From: a virus
Lineage: Duplodnaviria > Heunggongvirae > Uroviricota > Caudoviricetes
Reading direction: 5' to 3' (one strand)
IMG/VR virus record: IMGVR_UViG_2671180547_000008
DNA length: 6,438 bases
Shown here one piece after another: positions 578 through 5,472 of this stretch (within the stretch, counting starts at the first letter, position 1; each line of letters begins with the position of its first letter). The position numbers were made by a program, and so were the translations under genes. The notes beneath the pieces were generated by a model that worked only from the letters and a program-made list of their open reading frames with translations, did not search any database and was not told where the DNA came from.

Positions 578-654
578 TGGCGCGTTGTACTGGATTCGAA
601 CCAGTGACCGATTGCTTAGAAGGCAATTGCTCTGTCCGGCTGAGCTAACAACGC
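578..654 (-). tRNA. tRNA-Arg, anticodon UCU (reads the rare AGA codon)
   Basis: The minus-strand sequence GCGTTGTTAGCTCAGCCGGACAGAGCAATTGCCTTCTAAGCAATCGGTCACTGGTTCGAATCCAGTACAACGCGCCA folds as a 77-nt cloverleaf. Acceptor GCGTTGT/ACAACGC, D-stem GCTC/GAGC, anticodon stem ATTGC/GCAAT with loop CTTCTAA, T-arm ACTGG-TTCGAAT-CCAGT, discriminator G and encoded CCA. Confidence 0.9.
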
Positions 655-667
655 ATGATGCAGATAA

Positions 668-744
668 TGGACCGCCATCGGGGACTTGAACCCCGCGCAG
701 CCAGCTTCGAAGGCTGGCGCTCTTTCCTGATGNNNNNNNNNNNN
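668..744 (-). tRNA. tRNA-Arg, anticodon UCG (reads CGA); the 5' end of about 12 nt is hidden in the N-run
   Basis: Visible minus-strand 3' portion: ...GAGCGCCAGCCTTCGAAGCTGGCTGCGCGGGGTTCAAGTCCCCGATGGCGGTCCA. Anticodon stem CCAGC/GCTGG with loop CTTCGAA, T-arm CGGGG-TTCAAGT-CCCCG, acceptor 3' strand ATGGCGG, discriminator T, CCA. The 5' acceptor and D-stem fall in the Ns at 733-760, so the 744 boundary is extrapolated. Confidence 0.7.
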
Positions 745-760
745 NNNNNNNNNNNNNNNN

Positions 761-1733
761 GCCCGAGCGCCAGTGCCGCTTTCACTGTCGAACCCAACCC
801 CATGAAAAAATCTGCAATCAGGTCACCCGGACGACTGCTAGCGCTGATTATCTGCTGCAGCATTTCTGCCGGTTTTTCGCACGGATGTTTCCCGGGATAG
901 AACTGCACCGGTTTATGCGTCCACACATCGGTATACGGCACCTGCACCGTCACGCCAAAATACCGCCGCAGATGTTTATATTCACTCAGCAGCTCCGCAT
1001 ACTGCCGGTTCAGTGAGGTATACGTATCCACCAGCTGGTGGTGGAGCTTTTCCAGTTCACCACGCCGATGCTTCTCTTCTGCCACCCGGGCAAACAGCGC
1101 CTGTAATTTCAGATAATCGCTTTCATTCGGCAACTGCCACTGACCGGCACTGAACCAGTGCGACACCATGTTTTTCTTTCCTGTGGCATCTGCAATCTGT
1201 TTTGCCGTTATCCCCAGGGCAGCTCGCGCATCACGAAAGTAAGAAATCAGCGGGGCCATCACATGCTGTTTCAGTGCACTGCCCTTCGCCGCATACCCGG
1301 CATCTTTCGGACGATACGGCCCCTGATAATGTTCCGCGAACAGAATGCGCTCTGTGGCGGGGAAATACGCCCGCAGGCTTTCCTTGTTGCATCCGTTCCA
1401 GCGTCCGGACGGCTTCGCCCAGATAATATGGTTCAGCACACTGAAGCGTTCACGCATCATGATTTCGATATCAGATGCCAGGCGATGACCACAGAACAGG
1501 TAAAGACTTCCGGCAGGTTTCAGCACCCGCCAGAACTGCGCCAGACACTGGTCCAGCCACTTCAGGTAATCATCGTCGCCCTTCCACTGGTTATCCCAGC
1601 CCTCAGGCTTCACTTTAAAGTACGGCGGGTCCGTGACTATCAGGTCAACAGAATTTTCGGGTAACGACCGGATAAATTCCAGGCAGTCGGCGTTGATTAA
1701 CTCACAACTGGATATTTTTACAGTATTAAGCAT
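761..1733 (-). CDS. Beta-class N6-adenine DNA methyltransferase (phage-type orphan MTase); C-terminus interrupted by the N-run and probably truncated
   Basis: Starts at ATG 1733. DPPY (motif IV) lies near the N-terminus (IVTDPPYF) and the FxGxGST SAM-binding motif I (DFFMGLGSTVKAALALG) near the C-terminus; motif IV before motif I defines the beta class. There is a central HTH-like insert (ITAKQIADATGKKNMVSHWF). The six-frame ORF nominally runs to 645, but only through Ns and across the tRNA, and the post-N translation (IRKERQPSKL...) lacks the expected R-x-IG-x-E continuation. Confidence 0.85.
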
Positions 1734-1869: not shown

Positions 1870-1897
1870 AAATAAAAAAGCCTTCACTGCGGAAGGC
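1870..1897 (-). terminator. Rho-independent terminator (second terminator in the late leader)
   Basis: Minus-strand stem GCCTTC, loop CGCAGT, stem GAAGGC (plus 1880-1897), followed by TTTTTTATTT (plus 1870-1879 is an A-run). The stop codon of the 65-aa ORF (1884-1886) lies inside the stem. Confidence 0.65.
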
Positions 1898-2081
1898 GTC
1901 TGTAACAACCGAACTGATAGTCTGCCAGACCCGCCATAACCAGCTGGGTCAGTATTAACTGGCAGCGTTCGCGTGAAAGGTAAGTATTCTGCGCTATCTC
2001 CCCGACTGTCGCCGGTTCGGTAACGCTTAATTCATTAAACACCACTCTGGCGGTTTCTGTCATATCCTGCTGTTTTAGCAT
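1884..2081 (-). CDS. Small winged-helix/HTH-like protein (65 aa), uncharacterised
   Basis: ATG at 2081 is preceded by AAGGAA about 7 nt upstream. The segment TVGEIAQNTYLSRERCQLILTQLVMAGLADY resembles an AsnC/MarR-type HTH. It sits between the tR'-like terminator and the second terminator, directly upstream of the MTase. Confidence 0.5.
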   Translation of the reverse strand: MLKQQDMTETARVVFNELSVTEPATVGEIAQNTYLSRERCQLILTQLVMAGLADYQFGCYRRLPQ

Positions 2082-2197: not shown

Positions 2198-2225
2198 TCA
2201 TAAAAAACCCGCTCGGCGGCGGGTT
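2198..2225 (-). terminator. tR'-like rho-independent terminator downstream of the Q-like gene
   Basis: The minus strand reads AACCCGC-CGCCGA-GCGGGTT (7-bp GC-rich stem) followed by TTTTATG. It lies about 45-65 nt downstream of the predicted PR'-like start. Confidence 0.7.
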
Positions 2226-2272
2226 GTAGAAACTCTTCTAACGTCAGGCATAAAACGCCCATCGTTATAACG

Positions 2273-2300
2273 AATTTACCACAGATTCCGGAAAAATCAA
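2273..2300 (-). promoter_or_regulatory. PR'-like late promoter immediately 3' of the Q-like gene
   Basis: Minus strand has -35 TTGATT (plus 2295-2300), a 16-nt spacer and -10 TAAATT (plus 2273-2278). The -35 directly abuts the stop codon of the Q-like gene (2306-2308), the same geometry as Q/PR' in lambdoid phages. Confidence 0.45.
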
Positions 2301-2305
2301 CCTTG

Positions 2306-3127
2306 TTACCTAGTTACCTTTTTTAACTGCCGCTCAGCCCATGCTTCTTCAATATCAAACCGGGTCACCAGCGCATCATAAAATTTCTTAACTGTTTTTT
2401 CCCATGACGCGCGTGTTATCTGGTTTGTCACCTCGCATATAGCATTAAATGCCTCCGTTGATGGTAGTCTTTCATAGCCACGACCACCACAACGCTGGCA
2501 GTCTCTGATAACAGGCATACCACGTTTTACCGACTCTTCACGATGAATGGCGACACCACGCCCACGGCAATCCTTACAGGCGGTGGAAACCTCACCCTTT
2601 CCGCCACACTCCGGACAGGCAACTTTTACCACCTCCCTGACTTTTTTCCATTCTTCCCAGTAAGACGGATACACACCTTTCGTACACTTTGCCCATACCG
2701 GCGGCTTACCATCCGGATACTGGATCTTGTTTGTAAAAACCTCGCTTTCAATAAATTTTTTTCCGTGACAGCAGGGGCACTGTTTTTTGCTCGCCGCGCT
2801 ACGGGCATAATCTTCAAACGCATACGAAGCCATAATACGCATCACTGCCGGTTTTATTTCTGCCGGGAGTTTTCTTAACGCCGCCACGCGATCACACCGA
2901 CTGAGTGCATATTCTGTCAGCAATTCTGTTGCCCGCTCTCTGTCATTCATACTAATGCCCATTTTCCCAAGGAACGCAGAAACCCCCATCTCAGCCCGAT
3001 TCTGTGTCATGCCCTGCGCGGCCATCACATCAGTGATACTCAGCGCATCTTTCGACGTTGAGGCCGATGCATCAGTCAGGCCGGGGGATTTTGGGGAGTA
3101 GTATTTCGGTAAATCTTCCAGTTTCAT
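2306..3127 (-). CDS. Putative late-gene antiterminator (Q-like, QuuQ-type) with repeated CxxCxGxG zinc-finger motifs
   Basis: 273-aa ORF. Its ATG (3127-3125) overlaps the rusA stop as ATGA. It carries one CPCC and three CxxCxGxG motifs (CPECGGKG, CKDCRGRG, CQRCGGRG). Position after rusA and before a promoter-terminator pair matches Q genes of lambdoid phages. Identity is inferred from synteny and motifs, not alignment. Confidence 0.5.
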   Translation of the reverse strand: MKLEDLPKYYSPKSPGLTDASASTSKDALSITDVMAAQGMTQNRAEMGVSAFLGKMGISMNDRERATELLTEYALSRCDRVAALRKLPAEIKPAVMRIMASYAFEDYARSAASKKQCPCCHGKKFIESEVFTNKIQYPDGKPPVWAKCTKGVYPSYWEEWKKVREVVKVACPECGGKGEVSTACKDCRGRGVAIHREESVKRGMPVIRDCQRCGGRGYERLPSTEAFNAICEVTNQITRASWEKTVKKFYDALVTRFDIEEAWAERQLKKVTR

Positions 3128-3504
3128 TTTTTGACCTGCCCTTCAAGCATTATGGGATAAATCTTCACCCCCAGACGTCCACCAGATACTGGCTGAGCAC
3201 GAACGATATTGATTTCATCAAACTGCTCATCGTCCATTAGCAACCCCGCATGCGTCAGCGCATCCAGCGGCGCTTTCAGAATATTGTCCAGGTCACGGCG
3301 GCGCTTATCCGGTGGTTCTGCAATAATTTTTATTGCCAACCTTCCGGACAGGCTTAATTTCAGCCGCTGCTGGCGAACAATAAGCGCCACTGCCCGGCGA
3401 TAACGCTCCCCGGCTTTTGATACAAAATATGTGCTGCCACGACGACGCCAGTAAGTGTTCACCGTCGGCGGGTAAGGTAAAACAAATTCTATGCGCTCGG
3501 TCAT
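3124..3504 (-). CDS. rusA: RusA-type Holliday junction resolvase (crossover junction endodeoxyribonuclease)
   Basis: The 126-aa product has LPYPPTVNTYWRRRG, DKRRRDLDNILKAPLDALTHAGLLMDDEQ and VSGGRLGVKIY, which match the recalled RusA signature blocks ([48 protein letters not shown]). Its start follows the DUF968 stop directly (TAAATG). Confidence 0.9.
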   Translation of the reverse strand: MTERIEFVLPYPPTVNTYWRRRGSTYFVSKAGERYRRAVALIVRQQRLKLSLSGRLAIKIIAEPPDKRRRDLDNILKAPLDALTHAGLLMDDEQFDEINIVRAQPVSGGRLGVKIYPIMLEGQVKK

Positions 3505-5040: not shown

Positions 5041-5071
5041 AAAATAAAAACAAAAACCCGCCGAAGCGGGT
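5041..5071 (-). terminator. Rho-independent terminator of the hok transcript
   Basis: The minus strand reads ACCCGC-TTCG-GCGGGT followed by TTTTGTTTTTATTTT. It lies about 75 nt 3' of the hokD stop. Confidence 0.7.
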
Positions 5072-5140
5072 TAAGTGTGGGTGCATTGAGGATGCCTGCC
5101 CCATCAGAGGTGGCGAGGGATTTCTCCCCCGCCTGGTCTC

Positions 5141-5296
5141 TTACTCCTCAGGTTCGTAAGCTGTGAAGACAGCGACCTCCGTCTGGCCGGTTCGAATTCG
5201 TACCTCGCAGAGGTCTTTCCTCGTTACCAGTGCCGTCACTATGACGGTTAAACAGATGACGATCAGGGCGATTAACATCGCCTTTTGCTGCTTCAT
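5141..5296 (-). CDS. hokD: Hok-family type I toxin (HokD/RelF-like, 51 aa)
   Basis: The product MKQQKAMLIALIVICLTVIVTALVTRKDLCEVRIRTGQTEVAVFTAYEPEE has the Hok single transmembrane helix and the conserved C-terminal pattern (compare Hok ...[26 protein letters not shown]), and matches my recollection of E. coli HokD. An in-frame upstream ATG at 5353 (MNGKSRLASYVPKGKEKQA-) occupies the position of the mok start in the R1 hok/sok leader. Confidence 0.9.
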   Translation of the reverse strand: MKQQKAMLIALIVICLTVIVTALVTRKDLCEVRIRTGQTEVAVFTAYEPEE

Positions 5297-5344
5297 AGCC
5301 TGCTTCTCCTTGCCTTTCGGCACGTAAGAGGCTAACCTAGATTT

Positions 5345-5425
5345 GCCGTTCATAGATTGAGCCTCAGATTAATGTTAAGCGTCTTGCCGGACGCGTAATG
5401 TTAACTGGGGCTTTTCTCTATCTGC
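5345..5425 (+). ncRNA. Candidate Sok-like antisense RNA with its promoter (-35 at 5310-5315, -10 at 5333-5338)
   Basis: The plus strand has TTGCCT, a 17-nt spacer and TAACCT, which aligns by recollection with the R1 sok promoter (TTGCGC, 17 nt, TATCCT). The predicted transcript is antisense to the mok-like start region and ends in a U-rich stretch (GGGGCTTTTCTCTATCTGCCTTTTGG). Exact 5' and 3' ends are not determined. Confidence 0.35.
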
Positions 5426-5472
5426 CTTTTGGTGTTCATGCCTGAGACAGATAGCCTCAAGCACCCGCTGCA

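Follow-up and report, generated by a model that had tools for sequence, protein, structure and literature searches.

The region that follows the rusA gene in the window, i.e., the whole 6,438-nucleotide stretch analysed here, is very probably the late-gene antitermination cassette of a lambdoid E. coli prophage, made up of a Q gene, a promoter, a pause element and a terminator. The original prediction had read a Q antitermination module from a 273-aa protein after rusA with one CPCC and three CxxCxGxG motifs, a sigma70-like promoter abutting the stop codon and a strong terminator about 50 nt further on. All of these parts were recovered in our analysis: the open reading frame runs from 3127 to 2306 and encodes a Q protein of the lambda family, and promoter, pause element and terminator lie behind it. 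The cassette as such is already known, since E. coli genomes and phage mEp460 carry proteins with 96-97% identity under the annotation antitermination protein Q. The positions of the individual features are given in Table 1.

Table 1. Features of the antitermination cassette and its neighbours in the window.
Feature	Position	Strand	Basis or remark
DUF968/YdfU-like gene, 352 aa	4563..3505	-	directly before rusA
RusA-family gene, 126 aa	3504..3124	-	directly before Q gene
Q antiterminator gene, lambda Q family	2306..3127	-	273 aa; coordinates include TAA stop 2306-2308
N-terminal segment of Q, residues 1-44	2996..3127	-	putative counterpart, by analogy, of the lambda Q segment that refolds into the torus/nozzle
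68-residue insertion, residues 114-181	2585..2788	-	gap between the two lambda-aligned blocks
Zinc-ribbon 'arm', homologous to lambda Q 116-152	2474..2584	-	ligands C184, C187, C210, C213
C-terminal half of Q 'body'	2309..2473	-	aligned to lambda Q 153-207
Late promoter, pR'-like	2273..2300	-	sequence, conserved layout, shuffle test
Candidate Q-binding element TTTCCGGAATCTGTG in promoter spacer	2280..2294	-	conserved spacer motif
Sigma-dependent pause element AACGAT, -10-like hexamer then GGG	2261..2266	-	identical to lambda pR'
Predicted 5' hairpin of leader RNA, pause element inside	2239..2267	-	RNA fold
Intrinsic terminator, tR'-like, AACCCGCCGCCGAGCGGGTTTTTT	2200..2225	-	terminator scan
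First ORF past terminator, 65 aa, PHROG 331	1884..2081	-	ORF list, PHROG match
Second terminator-like hairpin, after 65-aa ORF	1897-1880	-	terminator scan

Profile, sequence and fold all place the 273-aa protein firmly in the lambda Q family. In a Pfam scan it matched PF03589 ('Antitermination protein Q') with 179.2 bits (gathering score 26.7, E=1.6e-53), while PF06530 and PF06323 were both absent from the scan at E<=0.1. PF03589 represents the lambda family, PF06530 Q21 and PF06323 Q82 (PMC9388147). PHROG 127, 'anti-termination protein Q-like', matched over the whole length of the protein (E=6e-112), and the best match among solved structures in a sequence search was lambda Q itself (7ubm_Q, E=3.5e-41). 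Because of these three matches and the missing Q21 and Q82 profiles, we assign the protein to the lambda-type Q proteins. The alignment with lambda Q falls into two blocks that pair residues 1-113 of the query with lambda 1-113 and residues 182-273 with lambda 116-207. The first block is gapless (86 bits), and within it G39 is kept and V6 is replaced by L.

The AlphaFold2 model of the protein (pLDDT 80.9) shows the lambda Q-type helical body with a helix-turn-helix and a zinc-ribbon arm. [quoted passage not shown] Confidence is low in residues 1-44, which is expected because this segment is disordered on its own. The corresponding residues 1-44 of lambda Q refold into a torus or nozzle inside the RNA-exit channel (PMC9388147).

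The start codon of the Q gene shares an ATGA overlap with the stop codon of the RusA-family gene. Behind the Q stop codon follow, in this order, 5 bases, the -35, the spacer, the -10, CGTTAT, AACGAT, GGG, the hairpin AACCCGCCGCCGAGCGGGTT and a T-run. The -35 hexamer TTGATT (2300-2295) thus starts 5 nt past the TAA stop (2308-2306) and is separated by a 16-nt spacer from the -10 hexamer TAAATT (2278-2273), which is preceded by an extended -10 TGg with the TG at 2281-2280. The element AACGATGGG begins 6 nt after the -10, as in lambda pR', and the -10 hexamer is identical to that of lambda as well. A search for the composite pattern TTGAYT-N15-18-TAAATT-N6-AACGATGGG gave a single occurrence in the window and none in 200 shuffled sequences. 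From this arrangement, transcription would start at about 2266. A scan for consensus promoters, which needs 9 of 12 consensus positions, called 0 sites; we set this result aside because the site matches 8 of 12 positions, one below the threshold, and is conserved in relatives.

This conservation was seen when the DNA after each Q stop codon was read at 43 loci encoding relatives with 43-97% identity, from Escherichia, Klebsiella, Enterobacter, Kluyvera, Pantoea and others. The same order was present at 34 loci: a -35 (TTTACT/TTGATT), a 16-nt spacer, a -10 (TAATTT/TAAATT), 6 nt and (C/T)AACGATGG. The pause element is conserved in most relatives. The spacer in related loci contains TTTCC[CG][GT]AA[TA]CTGTG, and the longer pattern TTTCC[CG][GT]AA[TA][CT]TGTG[GT]TAA has a single occurrence, just past the Q gene, in 29 of 48 loci. 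Beside the most divergent Q proteins (loci L041, L044 and L045) the spacer is a different one, which is the behaviour that a cognate Q-binding element would show. Its position matches that of the lambda QBE and of the Q site annotated in phi80, and the conserved motif TTTCCGGAATCTGTG in the spacer is therefore our candidate for the sequence to which Q would bind. Many relatives (L033 at about 3270-3305, L007, L008, L030) carry an additional, perfectly paired hairpin, ATAGCTCAC...GTGAGCTAT, in the gap from the Q stop codon to the -35, and its 3' arm extends into the -35 (GCTATTTACTTTT). This structure resembles a terminator of the Q transcript that overlaps the late promoter. The hairpin is absent from the window, where the -35 begins 5 nt after the stop.

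In lambda, the pR' region reads TTGACT-N17-TAAATT-TGACTC-AACGATGGGTTAATTCGCTCGTT. It shares with the window the TAAATT, the 6-nt gap and AACGATGGG, but the spacer sequence is different, and so, therefore, is the binding element. Furthermore, lambda has a -35-like TTGACT just upstream of the pause element, the site of repositioned sigma region 4 (PMC9388147), whereas the window has TTCGTT at this place. In the phi80 record, pR' is annotated together with a Q site that lies in the spacer, and a putative terminator is marked 53-81 nt behind the -10. The phi80 pause element is AACGCT, and its spacer motif reads TTCGCGGAA, compared with TTCCGGAA in the window. The Qin cryptic prophage of E. coli K-12 has TAAAAT, 6 nt, AACGATGGGC and then the terminator AACCCGCTGATGAGCGGGTTTT at a similar distance, with another spacer sequence.

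The terminator of the window has a stem at 2225-2206 of 7 pairs, 5 of them G-C, followed by T6 (-11.8 kcal/mol). Its hairpin begins 47 nt after the -10, close to the predicted 50 nt; the predicted leader RNA is about 65 nt long. The original prediction had also called this terminator unusually close to its promoter, a view that the comparison with related loci did not bear out. In most relatives a strong hairpin is present and its T-run lies 49-71 nt past the pause element, the window value being 59, so that a leader of about 65 nt is typical, and K-12 Qin and phi80 are alike in this respect. The short distance between promoter and terminator is the rule in this clade, and lambda, where the terminator T-run follows about 190 nt after the pause element, is the exception.

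With lambda Q as a template (PMC9388147), these elements suggest how the cassette may work; Q binding, the position of the pause, the dependence on NusA and readthrough are all proposed by analogy. Sigma70-RNA polymerase would initiate constitutively at the promoter (2300-2273) with a start at about 2266. Sigma region 2 would then rebind the -10-like AACGAT at +1 to +6 and cause a pause at about +16/+17. When Q is missing, transcription would end at the hairpin 2225-2200 and yield the RNA of about 65 nt. When Q is present, its helix-turn-helix body and its zinc-ribbon arm would mediate binding to the spacer element TTTCCGGAATCTGTG; Q would contact the paused polymerase, and, together with NusA, its N-terminal 44 residues would fold into a ring in the RNA-exit channel. 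This ring would block formation of the terminator hairpin. Polymerase would then read through the first terminator and later ones, e.g., the hairpin at 1897-1880, into the late genes. These would be the 65-aa ORF, the DNA methylase gene and the tRNA gene, to which the comparison with E. coli TUM10008 adds the genes for lysis. Our literature search found no experiment on the 273-aa protein or its promoter and, among the papers searched, no functional work on QuuQ/YdfT or the phi80 Q protein.

For the predicted terminated leader, the computed fold consists of a 5' hairpin plus the terminator (-23.3 kcal/mol, z=-2.7). The 5' hairpin, UAACG..GGGCGU...AUGCCU..CGUUA, has the pause element within it, and an AACG(A)...(T)CGTT inverted repeat is also seen in lambda (L002, 1379-1404) and in most related loci. 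When the AACG.../...CGTT arms were tested across loci, 82% of the cells were paired vs 15-48% with the partner slid. There were only 5 compensatory cells, and 21 of 500 shuffles scored at least as high in covariation (0.131). The few compensatory changes include AATGA/TCATT and AACA/TGTT. Covariation support for the 5' hairpin is suggestive only. The hairpin might shield the late mRNA at its 5' end or might simply reflect constraints at the DNA level.

We consider it unlikely that the leader of about 65 nt also acts in trans as a small RNA in the lysogen, in the manner of StxS. A precedent is given by the Shiga-toxin phages, where the terminated pR' transcript StxS binds Hfq and regulates host genes, and short late RNAs have been noted for phages 21, phi80, 82 and P22 (PMC7547250). 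The leader is predicted to have a hairpin at its 5' end, a single-stranded stretch rich in A/U and a terminator hairpin that carries a U tail, an architecture consistent with such a role. However, an Rfam search with the leader (2200-2267) returned no match at E<=0.1, relatives vary in the short segment that separates the 5' hairpin from the terminator, and covariation in the 5' hairpin is weak.

The late-operon reading is also borne out by the wider gene order. A 1.7-kb context query, covering the end of the DUF968 gene, rusA, Q and the downstream ORF, was matched in 3312 of 5426 complete E. coli genomes, in 1430 of them over at least 80% of its length. The best E. coli identity was 96%, and the gene is annotated there as 'antitermination protein'. 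In E. coli TUM10008 (96%), the order is hokD ... DUF968, rusA, Q, 65-aa ORF and DNA methyltransferase, followed by tRNA-Ile/Arg/Arg, (iraM), an esterase, holin and lysozyme, which is the order of a lambdoid late region and late operon. The Q protein of mEp460_ev081 and the E. coli 'antitermination protein' entries are 96-97% identical to the window protein, with few substitutions, and share the DUF968-rusA-Q order, but the modules past the terminator differ.

This difference reflects a mosaic joint. Phage matches break exactly at the terminator AACCCGCCGC(C)GAGCGGGTTTTTT (L049 at about 1490-1520; L050 at about 2830-2855). Some phages match the window as far as the end of the terminator, and others, with other Q genes, match from the terminator onward. 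Phage vB_EcoS-640R1 has Q, promoter and terminator in common with the window and then diverges; PhiR5_1 has the terminator and the downstream 65-aa ORF in common with it. The Q protein of PhiR5_1 has 126 aa and probably belongs to another family, because its size and the upstream sequence do not align. The promoter and the candidate binding element thus travel together with Q, and the terminator forms the module boundary. A boundary at this place fits with Q acting on the polymerase and not on a particular terminator.

The prophage could be defective, and we have weighed the possibility that the cassette has decayed within a cryptic prophage, with Q gene and promoter still recognisable and the switch dead. 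Related cassettes do occur in cryptic prophages, e.g., Qin of K-12, the best E. coli match is merely 96% identical, and a run of 28 N (masked or unknown bases) at 733-760 makes the intactness of the late region impossible to judge. Against this, the Q open reading frame is intact with all conserved residues and zinc ligands present, promoter, pause element and terminator are intact as well, and Q proteins with 96% identity are found in deposited phage genomes such as mEp460_ev081 and vB_EcoS-640R1. A dead switch is therefore quite improbable.

Several further features were noted in the window. The N-run falls within the DNA methyltransferase ORF (645..1733), towards its 3' end, and the listed C-terminus of the methyltransferase and its tRNA overlap are therefore unreliable. 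Rfam detects the small RNA STnc100 (123.6 bits) just downstream of a tRNA-Arg(TCT) gene; the two lie on the minus strand at 312-501 and 578-654, respectively. This STnc100/tRNA-Arg pair sits in the late region after the methylase; in the closest E. coli relative, this place is taken by three tRNAs (Ile, Arg, Arg). A hok/sok type I toxin-antitoxin locus is located at 5141-5466 (minus strand): the 70-aa ORF 5141..5353 has a Hok-like toxin at its end, sok is matched by Rfam at 5291-5466 with 112 bits, and hokD is annotated at the corresponding place in E. coli TUM10008. An Rfam match to isrK at 5051-5132 (minus strand) remained below threshold (25.8 bits vs a gathering score of 50) and is probably due to chance.

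The most conspicuous property of the window Q protein is its set of four cysteine motifs, CPCCHGKK at residue 117, CPECGGKG at 171, CKDCRGRG at 184 and CQRCGGRG at 210, in agreement with the motif pattern first described for it. They are kept in nearly all of 120 listed homologues of similar length and 54-97% identity. In the alignment, knuckles 3 and 4 coincide with the arm zinc ligands of lambda Q: C184, C187, C210 and C213 match lambda CRDCHGTG...CGRCKGVG and are invariant columns across 52 homologues. Knuckles 1 and 2 are borne by the insertion of residues 114-181, which is the sole large difference from lambda Q. Because motifs 3 and 4 together provide the lambda ligands, a sequential pairing of the motifs (1+2, 3+4) is implied, the 1+2 pair being deduced from the pattern of strands in the model. 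In DnaJ, the zinc topology is nested and motifs 1+4 and 2+3 are paired.

The label 'DnaJ-type', given to these repeats in the original prediction, is justified at the level of the CxxCxGxG motif and does not extend to the DnaJ cysteine-rich domain. That the protein is a DnaJ-like chaperone or some other zinc-finger protein, with promoter and terminator there by coincidence, is barely conceivable: the matches to PF00684 (30.1 bits) and TIGR02349 (27.9 bits) miss their cut-offs of 32.7 and, by far, 377, respectively, the Foldseek match to DnaJA2 is marginal (E=0.49, probability 0.72), and, although one homologue (P0029) is named 'chaperone protein DnaJ' by its source, the window protein has no J domain, all of it outside the insert aligns to lambda Q, its fold is the lambda Q fold, and its proposed sequential knuckle pairing would be unlike the nested one of DnaJ. 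We therefore rejected a DnaJ relationship on account of the sub-threshold profiles and the missing fold support, the CxxCxGxG motif alone being shared.

Lambda Q (PF03589; 4MO1, 7UBJ-7UBN) shares family and fold with the window protein and is about 40% identical to it, with the N-terminal 113 and C-terminal 92 residues aligned end to end, but lacks the 68-residue insertion that the window protein has between lambda residues 113 and 116. The lambda Q body comprises residues 61-113 and 153-207, and the arm is a zinc ribbon formed by residues 114-152 that swings by about 75 degrees upon DNA binding; lambda Q contacts the beta' zinc-binding domain of RNA polymerase through residues 110-112, 117 and 122-126 (PMC9388147). 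These boundaries place the insertion at the hinge between body and arm, beside the polymerase contact. In the AlphaFold2 model, the insertion is predicted to form a long beta-hairpin (125-136/159-170) with knuckles 1 and 2 at its base. If knuckles 1 and 2 pair as we propose, the model would be read as two zinc ribbons in series, the lambda one and an additional one, and the insertion probably adds a second zinc site at the hinge that is separate from the arm site. Most likely, it would stiffen or lengthen the arm or provide an extra contact near the beta' zinc-binding domain. Since the insertion adjoins the beta'-contacting residues, the loading geometry may differ from that of lambda.

Two examples of the long form come from phi80 and E. 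coli K-12. Phi80 gp17 (late transcription antitermination protein, 269 aa) is a long-form Q with about 41% identity to the window protein, and both have the insert hairpin sequence FxEAxVFTNK...YPxGKPPxW...PSxWE in common, but the third knuckle of gp17 is CxC whereas it is CxxC in the window. E. coli K-12 YdfT/QuuQ (b1559, 250 aa) of the Qin cryptic prophage is 40% identical over the full length and has the same four knuckles. Its gene follows the YdfU/DUF968 gene with no rusA between them, and its insert hairpin is shorter.

Within the family as a whole, a search of 1.84 billion cluster representatives yielded 234 family clusters. The original prediction had taken the protein to be larger and richer in zinc fingers than lambda Q; this is correct and is explained by the 68-residue insertion, but it does not make the protein unusual, as 34 of the 51 near-full-length representatives also have extra knuckles (four CxxC motifs in 10 and three in 24). 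Only 10 of the 51 carry the two CxxC motifs of lambda. The alignment shows that the 'three-motif' proteins have CxC instead of CxxC at knuckle 3, and the length of the insert varies across the family from about 13 aa, with knuckles 1 and 2 adjacent, to about 68 aa. Of the 249 records matched in the phage collection, 131 span the query as a single piece over at least 80% of its length. The long, zinc-richer form is the commoner one in the lambda Q family, and lambda Q is a minimal member. One family representative (P0193) keeps knuckles 2 and 4 and lacks 1 and 3, which suggests that the zinc sites of lambda Q family proteins can be re-paired in evolution.

For the annotation of this prophage, the cassette fixes the start of the late operon and names its switch. 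Its broader importance is small, since this is a textbook system of which near-identical copies are already annotated. The long form is of specialist interest, as the extra zinc ribbon is borne by most members of the family, including QuuQ of E. coli K-12. To our knowledge, all structural and mechanistic work on the lambda Q family has been done with lambda Q, which is without the extra zinc ribbon. Given that the insertion sits at the swinging hinge, long-form Q proteins raise the question of whether the lambda mechanism holds family-wide. We regard as unlikely the combined proposal that the long form loads in a mode different from that of lambda Q by means of the hinge zinc ribbon and that, separately, the leader of about 65 nt is a small RNA directed at the host. 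If this were true, an extra contact could be made with upstream DNA or the beta' zinc-binding domain and could replace the -35-like element and sigma region 4 contact of lambda, and lambda Q, although well studied, would be an atypical and reduced representative of the family.
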